From the NCBI GenBank assembly GCA_041687695.1, contig JAWLBL010000007.1, positions 96,001-160,000 of the forward strand: a stretch of DNA of 64,000 nt, read 5' to 3'. The notes under the pieces are model-generated. The model worked only from the letters and a program-made list of their open reading frames with translations. It did not search any database and was not told the origin of the DNA. The position numbers and the translations under genes were made by a program. Shown here in pieces: positions 7,080-21,648 of the stretch (its first letter is position 1; every line of letters begins with the position of its first letter). The DNA is from Myxococcota bacterium. GTDB lineage: Bacteria > Myxococcota_A > UBA9042 > PHBI01 > JAWLBL01.

Positions 7080-7937
7080 ATGCGTGCGTCGATGCGGTGG
7101 ATGGTGCTGGTGGCCGGCCTGGCCCTGACGACCGCCTGCGGCGGCGGAGACGGAGGCAGCGCGGACGTGCCGCCCGCCGAGACCGTCGATGCACCGGAGG
7201 ACGTGCAGGGCGCGCCCCGGCTCTCGGTCAGCCCGACCTCCGTGGCGTTCAGCGCGGTCCAGCCGCGCACGACGGCCGAGCGGCTGGTCACGGTGGCCAA
7301 CACCGGCGCGGCGCCGCTCGAGCTGACCGGGTTCGTGCTGCAGGGCGACAAGTCGTTGGCGCTCCAGGCCGCCGGCCAGGTCTGGGACGCGACGGCCAAG
7401 GAGGTCGAGCAGGCCTTCGATCCCGTCATTGTCGTCCCGGTCGGCGGCAGCCTCGGCTTGACGGTGCGCTTCACGCCCATGGACGCTACGCCGGCCGCGG
7501 CGACGCTGACGCTGCGCTCGAACGACCCCGACGCTGGCGAGGCCGCGGTCGTCACGCTGGTCGGCAACCCGCCGGCGCCGTGCCTCGAGGTGACCCCCAA
7601 GCAGGTGAGCTTCGCCGCCGCGGCCGGCGCGGCCGAGCAGACCCTGACGCTGACGTCCTGCGGGCAGGAGCCGCTGACCCTCACCGGCCTGGCCCTGGAC
7701 GCCTCCAGCGCCGCGGTCTTCTCGCTGGATCTGGGCGGGCTGGGCGGCCTGCCGGCGGGGACGAGCGCCCTGACCGAGCAGGACGACCCGGTCGTGCTGG
7801 CCAGCGGCACCTCGGGGACCGTGGCCGTCCGCTTCGACCCCGACGCCGGCGGGGCGGCCGCGGCTCAGGGCCTGGTCCGGATCGCCTCGGACCACGCGAT
7901 CCCTCTGGTCATCGTCCAGGTCGCCGCTACGAACTGA
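7080..7937 (+). CDS. Lipoprotein with two Ig-like ASH/choice-of-anchor D-type domains
   Basis: GGAGG RBS; lipobox LTTA-C; repeated VSPTSVAF...VANTGAAPL...VRFTP...LRSNDP pattern. Confidence 0.7.
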   Translation: MRASMRWMVLVAGLALTTACGGGDGGSADVPPAETVDAPEDVQGAPRLSVSPTSVAFSAVQPRTTAERLVTVANTGAAPLELTGFVLQGDKSLALQAAGQVWDATAKEVEQAFDPVIVVPVGGSLGLTVRFTPMDATPAAATLTLRSNDPDAGEAAVVTLVGNPPAPCLEVTPKQVSFAAAAGAAEQTLTLTSCGQEPLTLTGLALDASSAAVFSLDLGGLGGLPAGTSALTEQDDPVVLASGTSGTVAVRFDPDAGGAAAAQGLVRIASDHAIPLVIVQVAATN

Positions 7938-9759
7938 CGCCCCGGGCGCGGCGGGTCGCCGCCCGCCCGATGAGCAGGCCCAGCGCCACGACTAGCAGCC
8001 ACTCGACCCCGCGCGGGTCGGCCGCGCAGCCGCCCAGGTTCGGCTTGGCGCTGTCGACCTTGGGCGGGGCCGCCGGGTCGCGCAGCTCGAGCTGCGCAGG
8101 CAGGCTGGGCGAGCCCGGCTGGGCGCCGTCGAGCAGGGCGTCGATCTCGGCCACCTGGTCCAGGTGAAAGCGCAGGGGCGCGCCCGTCTCGTCGAGCACC
8201 TCGGGGAACTCGAGCGCCGGCGCCCCCGGGACCGGCCCGACCGAGAAGGGGCAGCCGTCGTCGCCGCAGGCGACGGTGCGGGTCACGCCGTTGGGGTAGG
8301 TGCGCGTCTGGAACCGGTCGCAGCTCTCGTCCTGGAACTCGCGCAGCTGCAGCGCGTTGAGGCGCGGCACGTCCGGCAGCTGCGCGTTGAAGGCGAAGAG
8401 CGGGTCGCGGATCATCTCGTCCGGATCCAGCATCGTGAAGAAGCGGGTGACCGTGCGGTCCTTCATCAGCGGCACGATGTCACTGAGCGGTCCGACGACC
8501 GTGCGGTCCAGGCGCTGGCGCAAGGCCCCGAGGTCGACCGAGAGGGTGGCGTCGCCCTGACGGTCGGCCTGGTCGGCCGACCACAGCTGGCTGAGCCGGA
8601 CGGACGGCTCGGCGTCGGGGTCGGTCACCGGGACGCAGCCGTCGCCGCCCCCTGGGGCGTCGGCGGGGCGCCAGCACACGGCCTCTTCGATGACGTCGAT
8701 GACGAAGGGGACGTCCTCGGCGACGGTCCACAGCGCCTCGAGCACGGCCCGCAAGGAGTCGGCTGCCTGGAAGGCGGCAACGGCCTGGGGCGCGATGACC
8801 AGATCCGGCGCCAGCGCGACCGGTCCGGAGGACTCGGTGACCCAGGCGCGGCCGCTGGCGGTGTCGACGGCGTCTTTGACGACGTCGAAGTAGTTGGTGA
8901 CGTTGGGCCAGTCGAGCGCCATCGGGTTGACGACGGCGTGGATGAAGTTCTTGGGCACCGCGCGGCCCGGGCCGGCGACGAAGACCGTGATGGGCATGTC
9001 GGGGGTGGCGGCGATGCCCGTCAGGCGCAGCGGCACGCAGGGGGCCTGCTCGTTGAACGTCAGCGCGATGGGACGCAGGTCGCCGGTGTCCTTTCCGCTT
9101 TGCAGGCGGATGCCCAAAAAGACGTAGCCCAGCCCGAGGTAGTGCCCCAGCAGCTGCTTGGCCGCGGGGTCCTGGTAGTAGCCGTTGGCGTTGAGCCAGT
9201 CGTAAAGGGCCTGCGACGACTGCGCCTCGATGAGCTGCGCGTCGTAGGGGCCGACGCGGGCCGCGTCGACCACCTTGACGTCGGGGTCCGGGGACTCACC
9301 CCCGAGGTTGGGCGCGAAGCCGCCGCGGGCCGAGGCGGACACCTCTGATGCGCCACAGCTGAAGCCGTCACACTCGTCGTTGTCCTCGACGGAGCCGTTG
9401 ACCGTGAACTGCGGGACCGTCGCCGCGTCGAGCGCGTCGAACAGCCGCGGCGACGAGATGGTCACGGCCTCGTCGAGCGGCAGCGGCTGGCCGTCGGCGC
9501 CCTGCGGGTGCTCGGGCAGCGGCAGCAGCCAGGCGAACTCGGTCGGCTCGCCCTCGTAGCGGACCTCGATGTGCATCGTGACCCGCTGGCCGTGCTTGAC
9601 GAAGACGATGCGCTCGCCGGCCTGGTAGATGGGCGACTGGGTGGCGGCGCTGCAGAAGAAGCCGCCGCAGGCCCGCGCCGGGCTGGGCGCGAGGACCGAC
9701 ACGGACAAGACGGCCAGGGCCGCCGCGAGGGCGAACCGGAGGGCTCCGGGGCGGTTCAC
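7927..9759 (-). CDS. DUF2330 domain protein with MYXO-CTERM-like tail (paralog 2)
   Basis: GTG start overlapping the upstream TGA; signal peptide then ACGGFFC; QAGERIVF; FAWLLPLP; WLNANGY; PLRLT; C-terminal GGC, TM helix, Arg-rich end. Confidence 0.85.
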   Translation of the reverse strand: MNRPGALRFALAAALAVLSVSVLAPSPARACGGFFCSAATQSPIYQAGERIVFVKHGQRVTMHIEVRYEGEPTEFAWLLPLPEHPQGADGQPLPLDEAVTISSPRLFDALDAATVPQFTVNGSVEDNDECDGFSCGASEVSASARGGFAPNLGGESPDPDVKVVDAARVGPYDAQLIEAQSSQALYDWLNANGYYQDPAAKQLLGHYLGLGYVFLGIRLQSGKDTGDLRPIALTFNEQAPCVPLRLTGIAATPDMPITVFVAGPGRAVPKNFIHAVVNPMALDWPNVTNYFDVVKDAVDTASGRAWVTESSGPVALAPDLVIAPQAVAAFQAADSLRAVLEALWTVAEDVPFVIDVIEEAVCWRPADAPGGGDGCVPVTDPDAEPSVRLSQLWSADQADRQGDATLSVDLGALRQRLDRTVVGPLSDIVPLMKDRTVTRFFTMLDPDEMIRDPLFAFNAQLPDVPRLNALQLREFQDESCDRFQTRTYPNGVTRTVACGDDGCPFSVGPVPGAPALEFPEVLDETGAPLRFHLDQVAEIDALLDGAQPGSPSLPAQLELRDPAAPPKVDSAKPNLGGCAADPRGVEWLLVVALGLLIGRAATRRARGVSS

Positions 9760-11600
9760 GAGCGCCTCCGGCGGCCGACGGTCGCCGCGCGGCCGACCAG
9801 CAGGCCCAGCGACAGGACCAGCAGCCACTCGAGGGCGCGCGGGCTGGCGCCGCAGCCGCCGACCTCGGGGCGGGCGTTGTCGAGCGAAGGCGCGGCGCCG
9901 GGCGGACGGATCTCCAGCTGCGCCGGCAGGCTGGGCGCGCCGGGCTGCGCCTTGTCGAGCAGGGCGTCGATCTCGGCGACCTGCTCGAGGTGGAAGCGGA
10001 TGGGGGCCCCCGACTCGTCGAGCACCTCGGGGAACTCGAGCGCGGGCGCGCCGGGGACCGGCGGGATGTCGAAGAAGGTGCAGCCGCCGTCCGCGCACGC
10101 CACGGTCTGGCTGTGGCCGTTGGGGTAGGTGCGCGTGTGGAACTGGTTGCAGGCGTCGTCCTGGAACTCGCGCACCCGCAGGGTGTTGAGCCGCGGCACG
10201 TCGGGCAGCTCGGGGTTGAAGGCGAACAGCGGGTCGCGGACCATCTCGTCGGGGTCGAGCATGGTGAAGAAGCGGGTGACGGTCAGGCCGTCGAGCATCG
10301 GCACGATCGACCCGAGCGGGGTCAGCACGGTCGCCTCGAGCCGGGCGTGCACGGCCGCGAGGTCGACTTCGACGGCCCCGTCACCCGTCGCCGCGCTCTT
10401 GGCGACCGCGACGTACGACGCCAGCCGGTCCTTCGGCGCCTCGGACGGCGCGCCCACGGGCTCGCAGTCGCCCTCGGGGTGGTCGGCGGGGTGCCAGCAC
10501 ACGAGATCGTCGAGCACGTCGACCACCATGGGCGCCTCCTCGACCAGGCTCTGGAGCGCCGAGGCCAGGGTGTGGAGCGTTTCGGCCTGTCGAATGTCGA
10601 GGAGCACCGCCGGCGAGACGACGGTGCCCTGGTCGAGCGGGACCACGCCCGACGACTCGGTCACCCAGGCGCGGCCGCTGGCCGTGTCGACGGCGTCCTT
10701 GATGACGTCGAAGTAGTTGGCGACGTTGGGCCAGTCGAGCGCCATCGGGTTGACGACGGCGTGGATGAAGTTCTTGGGCACGGCGCGGCCGTCGCCGGCG
10801 ACGAACACGGTGATGGGCATGTCGGGGGTGGCCGCGATGCCGGTCAGGCGCAGCGGCACGCAGGGGGCCTGCTCGCCGAAGGTGAGGGCGATGGGGCGGA
10901 GATCGCCCGTGCTCTTACCGCTCTGCAGTCGGATGCCCAGGAAGACGTAGCCCAGCCCGATGTAGTGTCCTAGCAGCTGCTTGGACGCGGGGTCCTGGTA
11001 GTAGCCGTTGGCGTTGAGCCAGTCGAACAGGGCGTCCGAGGACTTGGCTTCGAGGAGCTGGGCGTCGTAGGGGCCGACCCGCGCCGCTTCGACGACGTCG
11101 ACGCCGGGACGAGGAGCCGCCTGGGGCGGCGCGCCGAAGTCGCCGCCTCGGACGGAGCCCGCCTGGTCGGCGCAGCCGCCGAACTGGAAGTCACTGCACT
11201 CGTCGTTGCTGTCGAACTGGCTGTTCAGGTTGAACTGGGGCCGCGTCGCGCTGTCGAGGGCGTCGAAGAGCTTGGTCGACGACACGGTGACCGCCCGCTC
11301 GAGCGGCAGCGGCTGGCCCTGGGCGTCCTGCGGCAGCTCGGGCAGCGGCAGCAGCCACGCGAACTCGGTGGGCTCGCCCTCGTAGCGCACCTCGATGTGC
11401 ATGGTGACCAGCTCGCCGTGCTTGATGAACACGATGCGCTCGCCGGCCTGATAGATGGGCGACTGGGTGGCGGCGTTGCAGAAGAAGCCGCCGCAGGCGA
11501 GGGCGGGCTGCGGCGCCAGGAGGGCGGCCGACCACGCGGCGACGAGGGCGGCGAAGACGGCGGGTCCGGGGGCGCGGCGCAGGCCTTGCGTTCGCATCAT
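9756..11600 (-). CDS. DUF2330 domain protein with MYXO-CTERM-like tail (paralog 1)
   Basis: Same motifs as the neighbouring gene; ends EVGGCGAS..LEWLLVLSLGLLVG...RRRRS. Confidence 0.85.
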   Translation of the reverse strand: MMRTQGLRRAPGPAVFAALVAAWSAALLAPQPALACGGFFCNAATQSPIYQAGERIVFIKHGELVTMHIEVRYEGEPTEFAWLLPLPELPQDAQGQPLPLERAVTVSSTKLFDALDSATRPQFNLNSQFDSNDECSDFQFGGCADQAGSVRGGDFGAPPQAAPRPGVDVVEAARVGPYDAQLLEAKSSDALFDWLNANGYYQDPASKQLLGHYIGLGYVFLGIRLQSGKSTGDLRPIALTFGEQAPCVPLRLTGIAATPDMPITVFVAGDGRAVPKNFIHAVVNPMALDWPNVANYFDVIKDAVDTASGRAWVTESSGVVPLDQGTVVSPAVLLDIRQAETLHTLASALQSLVEEAPMVVDVLDDLVCWHPADHPEGDCEPVGAPSEAPKDRLASYVAVAKSAATGDGAVEVDLAAVHARLEATVLTPLGSIVPMLDGLTVTRFFTMLDPDEMVRDPLFAFNPELPDVPRLNTLRVREFQDDACNQFHTRTYPNGHSQTVACADGGCTFFDIPPVPGAPALEFPEVLDESGAPIRFHLEQVAEIDALLDKAQPGAPSLPAQLEIRPPGAAPSLDNARPEVGGCGASPRALEWLLVLSLGLLVGRAATVGRRRRS

Positions 11601-13085: not shown

Positions 13086-14126
13086 TCAGCCCAGCTTGTA
13101 GTGGAACGGCACCTGCACGGCGCGGCGATCCCACTCGAGCTCGGACGGCGGCCGCGGAACGCGTGTCACGCGGCGGACGGCCTCGAGCGCGGCCTCGTCG
13201 AGCACCCCGTGGCCCGACGAGCGCGCTATGCGAGCCTCGCGGACGTGGCCGTCGCCGTCGATGACCAGCTCGAGCACCACCGTGCCCTGCAGCCCCTGGC
13301 GGACGGCGGCGCGCGGGTAGGAGAAGTCGCGCTTGAGGGCCTTTCCGACCTGGCGGATGTACTTGCGGAGCAGGGCCCGCGCGTCGACGGTCGGCTGCTC
13401 GCCCACGCCGTCGCCCGGCCCTTCGCCGGTGCCGGCGCCGTCGCCCACCTGGTCGCCGCTGGGGACGCCGGTCCCGTCGGGCGCCCCGTCGGGCGTGCCG
13501 CCGTTGCCCTCGGGGTCGGCGTCGGGCGCGGTCGCGGCGGCGGTCTGCTCGGGCGCGGGCGGTGCCTCGGGCGCGGCGGTGGACGCGACGTCGTCGGCCT
13601 TGGTCGGCGCCAGCGGGGCGGGCTGCTTCTTGGCCGCGCGCTTGGGCTTGCCGCGCTTGGGCGGCTTGGGCGCCTTGGGTGGGTCGACCTTGGCGACGGC
13701 CGGTGGCGGCGCGGACGCACGCTGCGGGGGCTTGGCCACCGCGACCGCCTTGGCGGGCGGCTCGGCCGGCTTGGGCGCCTCGGGGGGCGGGGCGGGGGGG
13801 CGCACCTCGGCGCGGGGCAGCTCCTTGGGCGCCGGCGCCGCGTGCTCGACGCGCAGCACCTCGAGCACGCGGCGGTGCGCCTGGCGTCGCAGCTGGGTGC
13901 GGTCCTCCTCGGGGGCGAGGGCGGCGGCGGTCAGAAAGCCGGCGTGGACCAGGAGGGCGACGACGAAGGCGACGAGGCTGGCGTAGGTGTCGCGCCGCTG
14001 GGCGACGCTGCGGGGGTGGTGCCGCAGCGCGGCGCGCAGAGCGCGGCGGTCGCCGGCGTCGGGCGCGAGGTCCGGTCGCTCGATCTGATCGCGCTGGGTC
14101 GCGGTTGGCTGCTCGAGTGGCTGCAT
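13086..14126 (-). CDS. tonB: TonB family energy transducer
   Basis: TM helix with LLVHAG, Pro/Lys/Ala-rich linker, YPRAAVRQGLQGTV...SSGHGVLDEAAL C-terminal domain. Confidence 0.9.
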   Translation of the reverse strand: MQPLEQPTATQRDQIERPDLAPDAGDRRALRAALRHHPRSVAQRRDTYASLVAFVVALLVHAGFLTAAALAPEEDRTQLRRQAHRRVLEVLRVEHAAPAPKELPRAEVRPPAPPPEAPKPAEPPAKAVAVAKPPQRASAPPPAVAKVDPPKAPKPPKRGKPKRAAKKQPAPLAPTKADDVASTAAPEAPPAPEQTAAATAPDADPEGNGGTPDGAPDGTGVPSGDQVGDGAGTGEGPGDGVGEQPTVDARALLRKYIRQVGKALKRDFSYPRAAVRQGLQGTVVLELVIDGDGHVREARIARSSGHGVLDEAALEAVRRVTRVPRPPSELEWDRRAVQVPFHYKLG

Positions 14127-14184
14127 TCACCCACCTGTCGGGTCACGGACACTAGGGGATCGGATGTGCGCGCGCAAGGCTCTT

Positions 14185-14203
14185 GAAAGTGAAAGTCAAT
14201 AAC
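14185..14203. promoter_or_regulatory. Putative Fur box 1 (GAAAGTGAAAGTCAATAAC)
   Basis: 13/19 match to GATAATGATAATCATTATC by manual count; AT-rich island upstream of tonB. Confidence 0.55.
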
Positions 14204-14247
14204 GGCAATCGACCGACCCGGTCGCCTTTCCGGTTGACCTGCTTATC

Positions 14248-14266
14248 GATTTCGATTCTCAATATC
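14248..14266. promoter_or_regulatory. Putative Fur box 2 (reverse complement GATATTGAGAATCGAAATC)
   Basis: 14/19 match to Fur consensus on the minus strand; lies just downstream of a TTGACC -35-like hexamer (14234-14239). Confidence 0.65.
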
Positions 14267-14365
14267 GCCGCAAGCGGGCCCGGACGGCGAACTCCGGGGC
14301 CCGAAAACCTACGGCGATGCGCCCGGAGAACGATCTTGCGAAGCTTTGGATCACCATGGGGAACG

Positions 14366-15937
14366 ATGGGGCTCAAGGGAGCCCGTGGGGTCGTGGCGGC
14401 CGCGCTGCTGTTGGGCACCCCGGCCTGCGACGACGACGGCGAGGTGACGCCGACGACCGACACGCAGGTCGACACGGGCGCGGACGTCGATCCGGGCGAC
14501 ACGATCGACGGTGACGTCGCGGACGACGTCGGGCCGGACACCAGCGAGGACGTCGTCGAGCAGCGCCCGACGACCTACACCTTCCCGAGCAAGCCCGTGT
14601 CGGGCGCCGACAGCGTCGACTACGACGGCCAGGTGCTGCGGCAGGTGCTGCTGCAGAACCTCACGTCCTACATCGGCGGGCTGACGGCGGCGATCGACGG
14701 CGCCACCTTCGCCCCGACCCAGGAGGGCGAGGTCGTCGCGGCCCTCGACTTCTACTTCCGCTTCGACGGCGACTCCTACGGCGACGAGCCGCACGGCGTC
14801 TCGACCACCCCCGCGCCGCTGCAGTCGACCTACGCCGACGTCTCGGCCGGCCGCGACATCGTGGGCAAGCTGGCGGGCAACGACGCCGCGACCGATCACA
14901 AGGACTGGTCGACCGAGTTCGTCGGTTGGTCCGACGCGTCCATCGCCGCCCACGGCGGCTCCATCACCTCGCCCGAGGGGCTCGTCGTCGCCTTCTTCGA
15001 GACCCTCGAGGCCCAGGCCCTCGCGCGCGTCGACGGCGACATCCCGACCGGCACCGACGGCGCGCACCTGCCGGTGTACGTGACCCCCACCGGCCTCGAT
15101 CTGCAGCAGCTCATCCAGAAGACGCTGCACGGCGCCCTGTCGTTCTCGCAGGCCGCCGACGACTACCTGGACAGCGAGCACCCCGGCAAGGGGATCCTGG
15201 CCTCCAACGTGGCCGCCGAGGGCGCGAAGTACACGCCGCTGGGCCACGGCTGGGACGAGGGCTTCGGCTACTGGGGCGCCGCCCGCGACTACGCCGCCTA
15301 CTCGGACGAGGAGCTCGCCGGCAAGGGCGGCGACGCCGCGCGCAAGCTGGGCTACTTCGACACCGACGGCGACGGCGCCGTCGACCTCACCCAGGAGTTC
15401 AACTGGGGCGTCTCCACCAACGCGGCCAAGCGCGACCTCGGCAGCCACGCCGACGCCAAGACCGACTTCACCGGCGACCTGTGGAACGCCTTCCTCGAGG
15501 GCCGCTGGATCATCCACCAGGCCGACGGCGAGCTGACCCCCGACGAGCTGGCCGCGCTCGAGGCGCAGCGCGACATCGCCGTGCTGACCTGGGAGAAGGT
15601 CATCGCCGCGACGGTCGTCCACTACATCAACGACACGCTGAAGGAGATGGCGAAGTTCGACACGGACGCCTACAGCTTCGCCAAGCACGCCAAGGGCTGG
15701 TCCGAGATGAAGGGCTTCGCGCTGGCCTTCCAGTTCAACCCGGCCTCGCCGCTGTCGGACGCCGACTTCGCCAAGTTCCACCAGCTGGTGGGCGACGCGC
15801 CGGTCCTCGAGACCGCCTCGGCGGACGACATCGCGGCGTATGAGGCGGACCTCCTCGAGGCGCGGGCGCTGCTCGGAGCGGCGTATGAGTTCGCCGCGGC
15901 CAACCTTGGGGATGACAACGGCGCCGGCGGCTGGTAG
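14366..15937 (+). CDS. DUF4856-like lipoprotein, probably iron-regulated
   Basis: Lipobox GTPA-C; Asp-rich linker; VDYDGQVLR, GLDLQQLIQKTLHGA, HGWDEGFGYWG and HAKGWSEMKGF motifs; position before imelysin. Confidence 0.75.
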   Translation: MGLKGARGVVAAALLLGTPACDDDGEVTPTTDTQVDTGADVDPGDTIDGDVADDVGPDTSEDVVEQRPTTYTFPSKPVSGADSVDYDGQVLRQVLLQNLTSYIGGLTAAIDGATFAPTQEGEVVAALDFYFRFDGDSYGDEPHGVSTTPAPLQSTYADVSAGRDIVGKLAGNDAATDHKDWSTEFVGWSDASIAAHGGSITSPEGLVVAFFETLEAQALARVDGDIPTGTDGAHLPVYVTPTGLDLQQLIQKTLHGALSFSQAADDYLDSEHPGKGILASNVAAEGAKYTPLGHGWDEGFGYWGAARDYAAYSDEELAGKGGDAARKLGYFDTDGDGAVDLTQEFNWGVSTNAAKRDLGSHADAKTDFTGDLWNAFLEGRWIIHQADGELTPDELAALEAQRDIAVLTWEKVIAATVVHYINDTLKEMAKFDTDAYSFAKHAKGWSEMKGFALAFQFNPASPLSDADFAKFHQLVGDAPVLETASADDIAAYEADLLEARALLGAAYEFAAANLGDDNGAGGW

Positions 15938-16044
15938 CTGGAGCGCGCAGATCCTCACGATCGCCGGCCGGGGTTCGCCCCGGCCGGGATCGCACGATGG
16001 AGCGAGGGGCGCCCGTCGGGGCGCCGCTCCTATTGGAGCGAGCC

Positions 16045-17265
16045 ATGATGACAGTACGTTCGGTCGTCCGCGGCGGCATCGCCCTGCTGGCACTCGCGGC
16101 CGTCGCCTGCGGCGAGGGCGCCGCGACGAGCACCGACGCCAGCGGCGACGCGGCGCCCGTGACCGGGGCCGCCGTCAAGCGTGCCGCCCTCGAGAGCTGG
16201 GTCGCCAACGTCATCCAGCCGACCTACACCGAGTTCCGCGCCGCCGCGGCCGCGCTCGAGGCGGCGGCGGCCGACCTCGCCGAGGATCCGACCGACGCCC
16301 GTCGCGAGGCCGCCCAGGACGCCTGGCGCGCGGCCATGGTCGTCTGGCAGCGCGCCGAGGTCTTCCAGTTCGGCCCGGCCGGCGTCATGGGCAAGGTGCA
16401 GGGCGGAGAGGATCTGCGCGACGCCATCTACTCGTGGCCGCTGGTCAACCGCTGCCGCGTCGACCAGGAGACCGCCGAGCAGAGCTACGTCGACGTCGCG
16501 GGCTTCGCCTCCGAGCCGGTCAACGTCCGCGGCCTCGACGCCCTCGAGTACCTCCTGTGGAACGAGGACGCCGGCAACGCCTGCGCCCCGAACAGCACGC
16601 TCAACACCTCGGGCGCCTGGGCGGCCCTGTCGGCGGCCGAGGTCACGGCGCGTCGGGCCGCCTACGCGCACACGCTGTCGCAGCTGCTCGTCGGACACGC
16701 CGACGCGCTCGTCGCCGCCTGGCAGGTCGCGCCGGGCACCTTCGGGACCGAGCTGGTCACGGCCGGGGAGGGCAGCGCCGCCTTCATGAACCTGCAGGAG
16801 GCGCTGAACGCGGTCTCCGACGCGCTGTTCTACGTGGACCAGCAGACCAAGGACGCCAAGCTGGCGCGTCCGGCCGGGCTGGCCAACTGCGCAGAGGCGA
16901 CCTGCCCCGACGCGGTCGAGTCTCCGTTCGCGCGCGCCTCCAAGGAGCAGATCCTTGCGAACCTGCGCGGGTTCCAGGCCTTCTACCTGGGCGCCCCGGC
17001 TGGCGAGGAGGGCACCGGGTTCGACGACATCCTGGTCGCCGTCGGCGCCGAGACCCTGGCCGCCGACATGGCCACGCGCATCGAAGACGCCATCACGGCC
17101 GTGGCGGCCATCCCGGGGACGCTGACCGAGGCGCTCGCGGCCGATCGCGACGCCGTGGTCGCGGCCCACGCGGCCGTCAAGGGCGTGACGGATCTCCTCA
17201 AGACCCAGTTCCTGAGCGTGCTCGACCTCGAGCCGCCGGCCTCGGCGGCCAGCGACAACGACTGA
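16045..17265 (+). CDS. Imelysin family (peptidase M75-like) lipoprotein
   Basis: Lipobox AVA-C; AQDAWR, FQFGP, RGLDALEYLL, KDAKLARPAG, VESPFA, C-terminal SDND. Confidence 0.85.
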   Translation: MMTVRSVVRGGIALLALAAVACGEGAATSTDASGDAAPVTGAAVKRAALESWVANVIQPTYTEFRAAAAALEAAAADLAEDPTDARREAAQDAWRAAMVVWQRAEVFQFGPAGVMGKVQGGEDLRDAIYSWPLVNRCRVDQETAEQSYVDVAGFASEPVNVRGLDALEYLLWNEDAGNACAPNSTLNTSGAWAALSAAEVTARRAAYAHTLSQLLVGHADALVAAWQVAPGTFGTELVTAGEGSAAFMNLQEALNAVSDALFYVDQQTKDAKLARPAGLANCAEATCPDAVESPFARASKEQILANLRGFQAFYLGAPAGEEGTGFDDILVAVGAETLAADMATRIEDAITAVAAIPGTLTEALAADRDAVVAAHAAVKGVTDLLKTQFLSVLDLEPPASAASDND

Positions 17266-17271
17266 GCGCGC

Positions 17272-18711
17272 ATGACCCGAGACGGAACTCGCCTCCAGCG
17301 TCTCCTAGCCCGCGCGGCCCACCCGGTCGACGCGGGTTCGCTCGTCGCCTTCCGGGTGGCCTTCGGGCTGCTCATGGCGGTCGCGGCGGCGCGCTTCGTC
17401 GCGAGCGGCTGGATCGAGGCCTTCTTCGTCGAGCCGCGCTTCTTCTTCAAGTTCTGGGGGGCCGGCTGGGCCGCGGTCCCGCCCGCCGAGGTCATCTACG
17501 CCATGTTCGGCGTCATGGCCCTGGCGGCGGTCGGCTTCGCCCTGGGCGTGTTCTACCGCGCCTGTCTGGCCGTCTTCCTGGTCCTGTTCACGGCCGTCGA
17601 GCTCTTCGACGTCACCAACTACCTCAACCACTACTACCTGGTGAGCCTGCTCGGGCTCATCCTGTTCGTCCTGCCGCTCGGCCGCGCCTGGTCCGTCGAC
17701 GCGTGGCGCCGCCCCGACCGCGCCATCACCCACGTCCCGGCCTGGATGGTGTGGCTCGTGCGCTTCCAGGTCGCCGTGGTCTACACCTACGCCGCCGTCG
17801 CCAAGATGAGCGAGGACTGGCTGGTGCACGCGCAGCCGCTGAACCTGTGGCTGCACGCCCGCAGCGACTTCCCGCTGCTGGGCCCGTGGTTCGAGCGCTG
17901 GGACGTTGCGCTGGCCATGAGCTGGGCCGGGTTCCTGCACGATCTTTTGGTCGCGCCGCTGCTGCTGTGGCGCCGCAGCCGGCCTTGGGCCTACGTGATG
18001 CTCCTCGGCTTCCACGGCCTCACGGGGGCGCTGTTCAACATCGGCCTTTTCCCCTTCATCATGACCCTCGCCGCGACCACCTACTTCGAGCCCGACTGGC
18101 CGCGGCGGGTGGCCGCCCGCCTGCGCCGGGTGCTCGGGCGTCCCGCGGCCGAGGCGCCCCCCGTCCGGCTGCCGCAGCTGCCGACGGGCTGGCGGCGCAC
18201 CCTGGGCGTGTCGACCCTGGCCGCGTACGCCGCGCTGCAGGTCCTGATGCCGCTGCGGTCGCTGGCCTACCCGGGCCCGGTCATCTGGCGCGAGGAGGGG
18301 ATGCGCTTTTCGTGGAAGGTGCTGGTCCGCGAAAAGAGCGGCAGCGTGACCTACCGCGTGCGCGAGCCGAGCGGCCGCGAGCACCTGGTGTCGCCCGCCC
18401 AGTACCTGACGCGCCGTCAGGAGCGCGAGATGTCCGGCCAGCCGGACCTCATCGTGCAGCTCGCCCACCACGTCGCGGCCGACTTCCGGGCGCGCGGCTT
18501 CGGCGAGGTCGAGGTCCGGGCCGAGGCCCTGGTGTCCATGAACGGCCGCGCGCCGTCCCCGCTCGTCGACCCCGAGGTCGACCTCGCCAGGGTCACGCCC
18601 GGCCTCGCCGTCGCCGACTGGATTCTGCCCGCCCCCACCACCGCGCCGCCCCGACTCGGCGCGCGCCCTTCCGCTCCACCGGGCCCCCCGCCCGACGAGG
18701 TCTCCCCATGA
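17272..18711 (+). CDS. HTTM domain protein, vitamin K-dependent gamma-carboxylase homolog
   Basis: [71 protein letters not shown]...LVDPEVDL. Confidence 0.88.
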
Positions 18712-21050
18712 TCAGGCGCTCGCGCCTCTCGGCCGTCCTGTCCGCCACCGCCCTCCTCGCCGCCGGCGCCCCGCTGGCGCACGCCGACGACCCGGCGCCT
18801 GCGCCCCCGGCCGCGCCGGCCGAGCCGGTCCAACCCGAGCCCGCGCCGGCCGACGCCGCCGAGGACGCCGACTTCGACGACGACGCCGACGCCGAGGTGG
18901 CGCCGCTCGACGACGAGCAGCCGGACGACTTCGAGGAGGTCCGCAAGGGCGCCTACCGGATGAAGGGCTTCGAGATCACCTACCGGCCCGAGGACGTCTT
19001 CAAGGAGGGCGGCTCGGTGCAGGTGCTCGACCCGGCGCTGCTCGGGCGGCTCGGCCACGACGACCCCAACCGGCCGCTGATGATGGTGCCGGGCGTGTAC
19101 ATCCGACAGGAGGACGGCTACGGGCTGCGGCCCAACATCGGCCTGCGCGGCGCCAGCAGCGAGCGCAGCAGCAAGGTCACCCTGATGGAGGACGGCATCC
19201 TCTTCGGGCCGGCCCCCTACTCGGCCCCGGCCGCCTACTACTTCCCGATGATGGCGCGCATCGATCAGGTCGAGGTGCTCAAGGGCCCGGCCGCCGTCCT
19301 GGCTGGCCCGCAGACCATCGGCGGCGCCATCAACCTGGTCACCCGCGACATCCCGCGCGAGCTGTCGGGCATGGCCAGCGTCGGCTACGGGATGTTCGAC
19401 ACCCTGCGCCTGCACGGCCACGCGGGTGGCAGCCTGCCCTGGGGCGGCCTGCTGGTCGAGGCGGTGCACCTGGGCACCGACGGCTTCAAGACCCTCGACG
19501 GCGGCGGCGACACCGGCTTCGACAAGACCGAGGCCATGCTCAAGGGGCGCCTCAACTCGGACCTCGCGGGCGACGTCTACCACCAGCTCGACCTCAAGCT
19601 CGTCTACTCGCGCGAGGTGTCGAACGAGACCTACCTGGGGCTCAGCGACGCCGACTTCCGCGCCGACCCCTACCGCCGCTACCGCTCCAGCGCCCTCGAC
19701 CGCATGGACCTCGAACGGCTGGGCGGGCAGCTCGCCTACTCGGTGGCGGTGGGCGACGACCTCGACCTGGGCCTCACCGTCTACCGCCACACCATGAGCC
19801 GCGCGTGGCGCAAGCTCAACCGCTTCCGCGGCGGCCCCGAGCTGCTCGAGATCCTGTCCGACCCGACGACGCCGCTCAACCGCGCCTACTACGACGTGCT
19901 GACCGGCGCCGAGGACTCGGCGAGCGACCCCGAGACGCTGCTGGTCGGCACCAACGCCCGCGAGTTCGTCGTCATGGGCGCCGACGCCAAGGCGCGCCTC
20001 GCCTTCGACACGGGCGCGGTCGGCCACGAGCTGCGCGCCGGCGTCCGCTACCACTGGGACAGCATCGAGCGGAACCACTACGAGGACCCCTACGCGATGA
20101 CCGCCGGCGACCTGACGGCGACCGGCGAGCCGCGCGTCACCAACACGCGCAACCGCGGCACTTCGGGGGCGCTGGCGGCCTTCGTCGCGCACGCCCTGGA
20201 CGTCGAGGGGCTGACCGTGCGCACCGGCGCGCGCGCCGAGGTCATCGACATGGCGCTCGAGAACCTCGACACGGGCGCCGTCGCCGACAGCGACCAGGCG
20301 GCGCTGCTGTTCGGCCTCGGCGCCCACTACGCGCTGACGCCGACCTTCGGCGTCCTGGCCGGCGTGCACCAGGGCTTCAGCCCCGTGGCCCCCGGCCAGG
20401 CCGCGGGCGTCGACCCCGAGCGCAGCGTCAACTACGAGCTGGGCGCGCGCTACCTGGACGCCGAGGCCGGCTCGACCGCCGAGGTCATCGGCTTCTACAA
20501 CGACTACTCGAACCTGGTGACGCAGTGCACGCTGTCGGCGGGGTGCCGGCCGACCGATCTCGACGCCCAGTTCAACGCCGGCGAGGTCGACGTGGTCGGC
20601 GTCGAGCTGCTCGCGGCCCACGCCTTCGACCTGGGCCCGGTGGCCCTGCGCCTGCGCGGCACCTACACCTTCACCCACGCCCGCTTCGGGACCTCGTTCA
20701 CCTCGGACAACCCCGTCTACGGGGTGGTCGAGGCGGGCGACCCCGTGCCCTACATCCCCGAGCACCAGGCCTCGGCCCTGGTCGGGGTCGAGGGCGAGGT
20801 CTGGGGCGTCGACGTCACGGCCACCGTGCTGGACTCGCTGCTCGAGGGCGCCGGCGCGCTGAACGGGCGCGAGAGCGACGCCGCCGTGCTGGTGGACGTG
20901 GCGGCGCGCTACCGCCCCATGGACTGGCTCGAGCTGTCGGTCCGCGGCGAGAACCTGACCGGCGCCGAGCCCGTCGTCTCGCGCCGGCCCTACGGCGCCC
21001 GCCCCGCCAAGCCGCTGCACGTCCACGGGGCCATGCGCGTCTTCTTCTGA
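18708..21050 (+). CDS. TonB-dependent receptor (FecA-like)
   Basis: ATGA overlap with HTTM gene; signal peptide; plug motifs [22 protein letters not shown] and [21 protein letters not shown]-terminal Phe. Confidence 0.92.
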
Positions 21051-21069: not shown

Positions 21070-21648
21070 TCAGGCCGCGCGGCGCTCGGGCGTCGCGTCG
21101 GCCTGGGCCTTGCCGCCGGCGATGCGGCGGACGAGCAGGGCCAGCGTCACCAGCATCCCCAGGGCGTAGCCGCCGGTGGACGGCAGCGCGAGCCACTCCA
21201 GGGCCTCCTTGGCGGCCCCGGTGCCGCCCAGGCCCGGCGCCATCTGCCCGGCCAGCAGCCAGAACACCCCGTAGCCGAGGGCGCCGAAGCCCAATCCGAT
21301 GGCGGCCAGCTGGGCGAGGCGCCGCGGGCCGCCCACGAAGGCCAGCAGGAAGATGGAGGCCAGGGCGGCCGTGCTCATCGCGCCGGCGTGCAGGTGGGCC
21401 CGCTTGTAGTAGCTCCAGCTCTTGGCGGTCACGGCCTTCATCTTGGCCTCGTCGCCGCCGTAGACGTCGGCGAGGGCGGCCTGCCCGCTGGCCTCGAGGC
21501 CTTGCTTGAGGCTGTCCTCGGCCGCGCCGAAGGCGAGCCCGACGCCGACGCTGAACAGGGCGGCCAGCAGCGCCAGGACGAGCCCCGCCGCGAAGGGGCG
21601 GAGGTGGCGGTCGTACAGGTCGGCGGAGGCGGTCGTGGCAGCGGACAT
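21070..21648 (-). CDS. Hypothetical integral membrane protein (about 4 TM, RAHLHA motif)
   Basis: GGAG RBS; hydrophobic segments; [14 protein letters not shown]. Confidence 0.7.

Follow-up and report, generated by a model that had tools for sequence, protein, structure and literature searches.

Human GGCX, the gamma-glutamyl carboxylase that depends on vitamin K, acts on a propeptide with a Glu-rich domain; its working residues are N159, H160, W223, F299, Y395 and K218, where K218, W223 and also D263 serve quinol activation, and N159, H160, Y395 and F299 serve substrate and CO2 (PMC12647623). Bacterial GGCX homologues are common, yet the only cited substrate that we found is a natural-product intermediate: MloH, from malonomycin biosynthesis, is reported to carboxylate an aspartyl residue (Law et al. 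2018). In this study, we have analysed a 64,000-nucleotide stretch of the genome of a Myxococcota bacterium (contig JAWLBL010000007.1, positions 96,001 to 160,000), referred to below as the window, in which a GGCX homologue, the HTTM protein, is encoded between an imelysin lipoprotein and a TonB-dependent receptor in a putative iron uptake cassette. MloH, to which the HTTM protein is likened by description only, differs in that it acts on a polyketide-peptide intermediate within a biosynthetic cluster, with no iron context or protein substrate.

EfeO of the Escherichia coli EfeUOB system has the imelysin fold in common with the window protein; EfeU and EfeB, like FecIR and FecBCDE, were not among the genes scanned beside the window locus. 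In the copper uptake pair MbnH/MbnP, the gene next to a TonB receptor specifies an enzyme that alters its partner protein and thereby creates a metal site; however, that pair works by di-heme Trp oxidation, serves copper and has folds unrelated to those of the window proteins. The PA4370-PA4373-type operon of Pseudomonas, which encodes an imelysin (imelysin-1), a DUF1111 (DHOR) protein, an IPPA-type imelysin and a DUF1513 protein, is Fur regulated and has the same IPPA-type imelysin with the same tail (PMC3143127; bioRxiv 10.1101/072470). The window cassette is a variant of this operon, in which DUF4856 replaces imelysin-1 and DHOR, a carboxylase homologue replaces DUF1513, and a TonB receptor is also encoded; imelysin-1, DHOR and DUF1513 are not in the window, and the whole genome has a single PF09375 match. 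In Riemerella anatipestifer, RAYM_09779-09794 encode a receptor, a "vitamin K-dependent gamma-carboxylase," an imelysin and a product listed as hypothetical (RAYM_09794); these genes are upregulated under iron restriction and listed as Fur regulated, in a table entry that carries no proposed function (PMC5609570, Table 4). Within the literature covered, which left out most subscription journals, we found no described mechanism for HTTM-imelysin pairing, only the Riemerella paper on a vitamin K-dependent carboxylase with TonB, imelysin or iron, and for HTTM, TonB and iron together a single preprint, on another HTTM group.

A GGCX homologue with a fixed imelysin partner

By its domains, fold and catalytic residues, the HTTM protein is a member of the GGCX structural family, and it is the imelysin rather than the receptor that is its constant partner. 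From a modelled complex, it very probably binds the neighbouring imelysin. The five genes, described in an earlier note on this DNA, were all confirmed in the window by Pfam scans and coordinates, together with the two Fur-like boxes, a spacing of exactly 6 bp between the imelysin and HTTM genes, and the ATGA overlap between HTTM and the receptor:

13086..14126, minus strand: tonB, divergent from the cassette (PF03544, E 3.5e-20; TIGR01352)
14185..14203: Fur-like box 1 (13/19)
14248..14266: Fur-like box 2 (14/19; the genome holds only 3 sites of at least 14/19)
14366..15937, plus strand: DUF4856 lipoprotein, all-helical model (PF16148, E 8e-14)
16045..17265, plus strand: imelysin lipoprotein of the IPPA/PA4372 type, with GLDALE and no His (PF09375, E 2e-40)
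17242..17265, plus strand: imelysin C-terminal tail, S-A-A-S-D-N-D plus stop, with an Asp-x-Asp end
17272..18711, plus strand: HTTM protein, vitamin K-dependent carboxylase (GGCX) homologue (PF05090, E 1e-75; PF22777, E 4e-41)
18708..21050, plus strand: TonB-dependent receptor, FecA-like (PF07715 and PF00593)

The HTTM protein, which consists of the HTTM domain and lumenal clamp A, aligns only to residues 49-504 of human GGCX (E 1e-37) and exceeds the Pfam cut-offs for both PF05090 (HTTM, 254.7 bits) and PF22777 (carboxylase lumenal domain, 141.1 bits). Its model, with a predicted local distance difference test (pLDDT) score of 96.6, returned 16 fold matches at an E value of 0.001 or less, all 16 of which were GGCX chains (template modelling scores of 0.70-0.86). 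No transporter was among these matches, which makes a permease or transporter function unlikely, and with it the earlier suggestion that HTTM might be a missing inner-membrane step. Window residues K178, N119/H120, W183, D224 and F260 are the equivalents of GGCX K218, N159/H160, W223, D263 and F299, in a numbering transferred by hand from the alignment. Among 118 aligned homologues, comprising the window protein and 117 picked for a score above 380 and a tail-bearing neighbour, the equivalents of N159, H160, K218, W223, D263, H287 and F299 are invariant (118/118). Thr occupies the N290 position in 107, including the window protein, and the Y395 position is Tyr in 52, Met in 44 and Phe in 16. 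The G396 position is Arg in 116 and the R406 position is basic in all 118, which would suit an acidic tail. Judged from these residues, the HTTM protein is likely to be an active quinol/O2 enzyme. It differs, however, from the animal gamma-glutamyl carboxylase, in which K217, Y395 and clamp B go with propeptide-guided Glu substrates: K217, N290 and Y395 are replaced by Ala, Thr and Met, respectively, and the clamp B and C-terminal domain of GGCX are missing. Whereas the GGCX partner is a propeptide with a Glu-rich domain, the predicted partner here is a folded lipoprotein that offers a C-terminal Asp-x-Asp.

GGCX homologues were found in 49 of 201 sampled genomes of the same phylum, and the genome collection is estimated to hold approximately 6700 matching stretches. 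Another group of homologues, full-length but lower-scoring, has no imelysin neighbour (L048, L049, L056, L060-L062, L064, L067, L068 and L006-L008) and probably has other functions. Two further HTTM genes in the window organism encode proteins without the lumenal domain and lack imelysin neighbours.

The pairing was surveyed at two sets of loci, both found via the carboxylase homologue alone: the 201 genomes of the phylum gave 63 non-self PF22777 matches, of which 60 were taken, and the genome collection gave 599 relatives, of which the best 80 were taken. One place occurs in both sets (L020 and L078). The set of 80 includes one locus (L073) from a genome flagged as unpublished (G458), which is also a single row among the 118 aligned homologues and one of the five genomes scanned for menaquinone genes; none of the claims rests on it. 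An imelysin with the Asp-x-Asp (DxD) tail was present at 46/60 and 76/80 loci, respectively, or 122/140 together, which is consistent with the earlier expectation that the neighbourhood recurs in other bacteria. The other 18 loci comprise 5 that end within 600 bp upstream, 2 gene fragments, 9 paralogues below 400 bits and 2 true exceptions (L122 and L129). Carriers include Myxococcota, Bacteroidota, Rhodothermaceae, Gammaproteobacteria, Longimicrobiales and Dehalococcoidia, and the pairing is present on two of five plasmid matches. In four Chloroflexota carriers, no TonB receptor (PF00593) exceeded the cut-off, and the carboxylase-imelysin pair was still present. When Bacteroidota loci were found through the imelysin (20 of 22 new tail-matching hits), HTTM was present in 20/20, although the search profile was built from HTTM-linked genes and is biased accordingly. 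The pairwise identities of the carboxylase homologue correlate with those of the imelysin (r 0.83, 118 gene pairs), a relationship that is confounded by kinship.

The window imelysin has GLDALE, that is, GxxxxE without the His of GxHxxE, which places it in the IPPA/PA4372 family, and its profile matches 3pf0 through to the C-terminus. The paper that describes the IPPA family and its GxxxxE motif found the tail of crystallised IPPA to be disordered and the protein not to bind zinc (PMC3143127). Among 263 imelysins longer than 300 residues, 40 of which had been selected for a tail match, 193 have the tail without GxHxxE, 66 have the reverse, 1 has both and 3 have neither. Only 24 of 121 HTTM-linked tails contain a Glu within their final six residues, and the window tail has none there. 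DND tails go with Met/Arg (40 cases), and DGD tails with aromatic or aliphatic residues, at the Y395 and H404 positions, a pattern confounded by phylum. Five Chloroflexota loci, mostly from metagenome-assembled genomes of Dehalococcoidia (L090, L094, L095, L097 and L106), have an imelysin-DHOR-imelysin arrangement with HTTM, sometimes convergent, and their tails carry one to three extra residues after DGD.

When HTTM and the imelysin were modelled together, the interaction prediction score from aligned errors (ipSAE) was 0.87; the best of three controls scored 0.00. Of the solved pairs, 116 of 157 reached the mark used, as did 2 of 215 mismatched pairs, and this mark is a rough guide here since our own alignments were used. 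The runs agreed in at least 94% of contacts, and the partner pLDDT was at least 91. The top contacts lie between clamp A and the final helix of the imelysin. On the HTTM side, the predicted interface includes the equivalents of W157-H160, F294-F299, Y395, D400-M402 and R406; the imelysin side includes the last seven residues, 361-367. From these two residue lists, we infer that the tail would touch catalytic residues. No solved HTTM-imelysin complex was found.

Exchange of the carboxylase slot and possible roles of the tail

The imelysin tail is not confined to loci with a carboxylase homologue. Among 40 imelysin loci of the same phylum that lay outside the first set, 34 had a DxD imelysin; 27 of these encoded a PF04116 fatty-acid hydroxylase domain, 2 a truncated HTTM and 5 neither (3 of them at contig ends). 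At 40 Pseudomonadota loci, chosen for reaching the tail among matches in 56 of 251 genomes, the partner was DUF1513 at 35, a fatty-acid hydroxylase at 4 and unresolved at 1. HTTM and the fatty-acid hydroxylase co-occurred at none of 220 loci, nor did DHOR and DUF4856. On a FastTree phylogeny of 194 imelysins, the fatty-acid hydroxylase label changed 10 times, with at least 6 changes forced by starred branches; L001, L078 and L073 were left out of this tree, L212 was labelled DUF1513 by assumption, and long-branch warnings apply. The earlier view of a system built around the carboxylase and TonB has to be given up: elsewhere, two unrelated proteins take the place of the carboxylase, and carboxylase-imelysin pairs also exist where there is no TonB receptor. 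This exchange suggests a common job on the tail rather than a common chemistry.

The fatty-acid hydroxylase domain is a di-iron domain with intact His boxes, for which no solved relative was found, and the literature searched held no report of a sterol desaturase paired with an imelysin. It occurs either alone or in frame with a receptor or imelysin, ahead of an apparent internal signal peptide. One-frame fusions were seen with a TonB-dependent receptor at 19 loci and with an imelysin at 2 (L149:7411-9588, L150:1625-3919, L156:2847-6017 and 18 more of L154-L179); these would apparently combine an inner-membrane enzyme and an exported protein in a single gene. DUF1513 is a Tat-type beta-propeller for which an Atlas search returned only beta-propeller look-alikes, without chemistry; in mutant screens, it was cofit with its operon (bioRxiv 10.1101/072470).

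We tentatively propose that the HTTM protein carboxylates a tail Asp of the imelysin, using quinol, O2 and CO2, to give a malonate-type, protein-bound iron ligand, because the CO2 and carboxylate sites are invariant, the predicted pose brings in the tail, and MloH is reported to act on an aspartyl residue. Under this proposal, iron shortage would lead Fur to derepress the cassette, and the imelysin would dock onto clamp A in the periplasm. K178 would then activate the quinol, and the resulting base would take a proton from the carbon beside the Asp carboxylate, either C-beta or the C-alpha of the terminal residue, which would accept CO2 to form the malonate-type chelator. The matured tail could receive Fe(III) from the receptor or DUF4856 and pass it on, with FeoB or another carrier providing the inner-membrane step. 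More tentatively still, bacterial vitamin K-type protein carboxylation may in this way produce a protein-tethered siderophore, the di-iron hydroxylase and DUF1513 may mature the same tail otherwise, and this pair may be close to what the blood-clotting carboxylase originally did.

Several observations weigh against carboxylation. The tail is kept equally at loci without the carboxylase (31 with the fatty-acid hydroxylase domain and 35 with DUF1513), so its conservation does not point to carboxylation as such, and neither replacement protein can yield the carboxylase product. The K217 position is Ala in 113/118 homologues, including the window protein, and Lys in none, and Leptospira homologues without K217 are described as epoxidising without substrate activation; in favour of activity, human GGCX K217A retains catalysis (bioRxiv 2025.02.09.637231). 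The Y395 position is Met in the window protein, which also lacks clamp B and the C-terminal domain. The best contacts of the modelled complex include no pair of a tail and a catalytic residue, and the pose could be biased by the existing structures of GGCX with bound peptide. L129 carries DUF4856 and HTTM with no imelysin, and the Riemerella genes keep their iron response in a fur mutant (PMC5609570).

Quinone supply is a further difficulty. The earlier note pointed to the use of menaquinone by myxobacteria, but its synthesis in this organism is not supported: MenB, MenD, MqnA/D and MqnC did not exceed the cut-off in the 99%-complete genome. The same was true of three gammaproteobacterial carriers; MenD was detected in a Kordia control. 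A MenA-like protein fell below the cut-off (88 versus 102 bits), a VKOR-DsbA fusion is present (coordinates noted for these two: L245:1480-2877 and L247:835-2034), and UbiA was not over the cut-off among the five UbiA-family proteins scanned in the genome. The enzyme would need a salvaged naphthoquinone head or another quinol. The presence of the MenA-like protein and the VKOR-DsbA fusion without the menaquinone ring pathway is possibly a sign of quinone salvage.

The exchange of the slot for two unrelated proteins favours the main rival explanation, in which the tail carries Fe(III) into the former substrate cleft with no covalent change and the quinol site of HTTM reduces or unloads this iron, making it available to FeoB. 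At other loci, the same tail would be unloaded by the di-iron domain or by DUF1513. This would be the simplest account of one tail paired with three unrelated proteins. The predicted complex fits it equally well, the genome does encode FeoB, the 1:1 layout of the operon is in keeping with a working partner, and loss of K217 has been linked to uncoupled quinol oxidation in the Leptospira homologues (bioRxiv 2025.02.09.637231). We nevertheless regard unloading as rather unlikely: F299, H160 and N159, which form the CO2 pocket and bind carboxylate, are invariant and would be dispensable for a plain reductase, and a set of metal ligands is not evident in the cleft, as read without metal modelling. 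Furthermore, we know of no ferric reductase activity in the GGCX fold. Hydroxy-aspartate is a known siderophore ligand, and all slot occupants might oxygenate the tail to this residue, with HTTM using quinol and O2 without fixing CO2. A single product of both enzymes would be parsimonious, and the commonest replacement in the phylum is indeed a His-box domain of the di-iron hydroxylase family, repeatedly exchanged with its boxes intact. However, fatty-acid hydroxylase active sites face the cytoplasm, unlike the HTTM site, which faces the periplasm by homology; DUF1513, a beta-propeller, has no known chemistry, and we know of no hydroxylase in the GGCX family. Oxygenation is hence quite improbable.

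Fatty-acid hydroxylase enzymes usually act on lipids, and the nearest solved receptor structure is that of the ferric-citrate receptor FecA. Both points fit the idea that the enzyme in truth acts on a small molecule or on a carboxylate of a lipid, converting it into a malonate- or citrate-like chelator that the receptor imports, with the tail merely activating or gating the enzyme as a propeptide does; MloH, too, works on a small-molecule intermediate (Law et al. 2018). This idea is improbable, as no biosynthetic or export gene was seen to travel with the cassette in a screen of eight families, the tail itself is predicted to lie in the substrate site, and the carboxylase-imelysin pair persists without a receptor. 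The earlier note had envisaged carboxylation of Glu on a partner protein to form a Gla surface. The catalytic residues are indeed intact and a partner is predicted within the operon. A metal-binding Gla surface on the receptor, DUF4856 or the imelysin body, despite the direct analogy to GGCX and an acidic stretch at the receptor N-terminus, is very improbable: Glu is rare in the tails, it is Asp that accounts for the conserved acidic positions, there is no clamp B for a propeptide, and loci that exchange or lack the receptor and DUF4856 nevertheless retain the imelysin.

For a bacterial GGCX homologue, the locus thus points to a partner protein, to a site of seven residues and to the mass shift to look for. 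If carboxylation is true, it would constitute a bacterial vitamin K-type protein modification and a means for imelysins, which are poor metal binders as purified, to hold iron. If it is false, a binding partner would still be assigned and quinol-driven iron release indicated. In either case, the three-way exchange points to one target shared by DUF1513 and an orphan subfamily of di-iron hydroxylases.

Iron response, receptor and flanking genes

Neighbourhoods, Fur-like boxes and the induction in Riemerella support a conserved, iron-responsive uptake cassette to which the HTTM gene belongs, in line with the earlier note. Fur-like sites were scored by script against an E. coli consensus. The 7.97-Mb genome has 31 sites of at least 13/19 and 3 of at least 14/19; a search that allowed at most 3 mismatches gave no match. 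Regions upstream of related DUF4856 genes reached 13/19 in 39/47 cases, compared with 0/47 in-gene controls, a contrast that is overstated because the coding controls are richer in GC (shuffle means were 9 to 12). The genome also encodes a fur gene (PF01475), which together with the conserved upstream boxes is what the sequence of a Fur regulon would contain. Another site of at least 14/19 lies approximately 330 bp upstream of bacterioferritin. The top site of the genome (15/19; L247:6815-6833, equal to G000:C2:260814) is between a Uma2 gene and a 154-residue open reading frame that has no Pfam or NCBIfam match and is a candidate iron-regulated gene.

The receptor scored 109 bits against the FecA model NF041676 (cut-off, 1100) and so is not a FecA member; the earlier label "FecA-like" holds insofar as FecA is the nearest solved structure, in the plug region only. 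The DUF4856 model (pLDDT 97.7) had no PDB sequence or fold match. In the upstream slot, DUF4856 alternates with imelysin-1 and the di-heme DHOR, and the subgroup to which the window protein belongs ends in a conserved Trp. A relationship between DUF4856 and imelysins was considered and rejected (hhalign probability, 0.2; no PDB match). A link to the algal low-iron protein Fea1 is a weak lead only (Atlas, 0.84; 1 of 94 members, E 0.002), and no report connecting DUF4856 with iron was found in the literature searched.

The four forward genes had been called tightly linked, which is true of the imelysin, HTTM and receptor genes; however, a 107-bp gap (15938-16044) separates DUF4856 from the imelysin. 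GC-rich inverted repeats, seen by eye in this gap, could tune mRNA levels within the operon. With starts at 14366 and 16045, both lipoproteins have a signal peptide that ends in a lipobox-like Cys, also identified by eye (TPAC and AVAC). No sigma-70-like promoter or informative terminator was found at the locus. In the majority of related loci, tonB does not adjoin the cassette, according to neighbourhood scans. The statement that no ABC permease, FTR1 or EfeU accompanies the cassette stands for the four flanking genes scanned with Pfam, which encode a VWA protein, DUF2330, a 191-residue product without a family and a kinase-WD40 protein, but FeoB is encoded elsewhere in the genome. At positions 7927-11600 of the window, two tandem DUF2330 genes with similar anchor-like C-terminal tails follow the VWA-domain gene, and at 21070-21645, downstream of the receptor, a convergent open reading frame encodes a small membrane protein with no Pfam or NCBIfam match.

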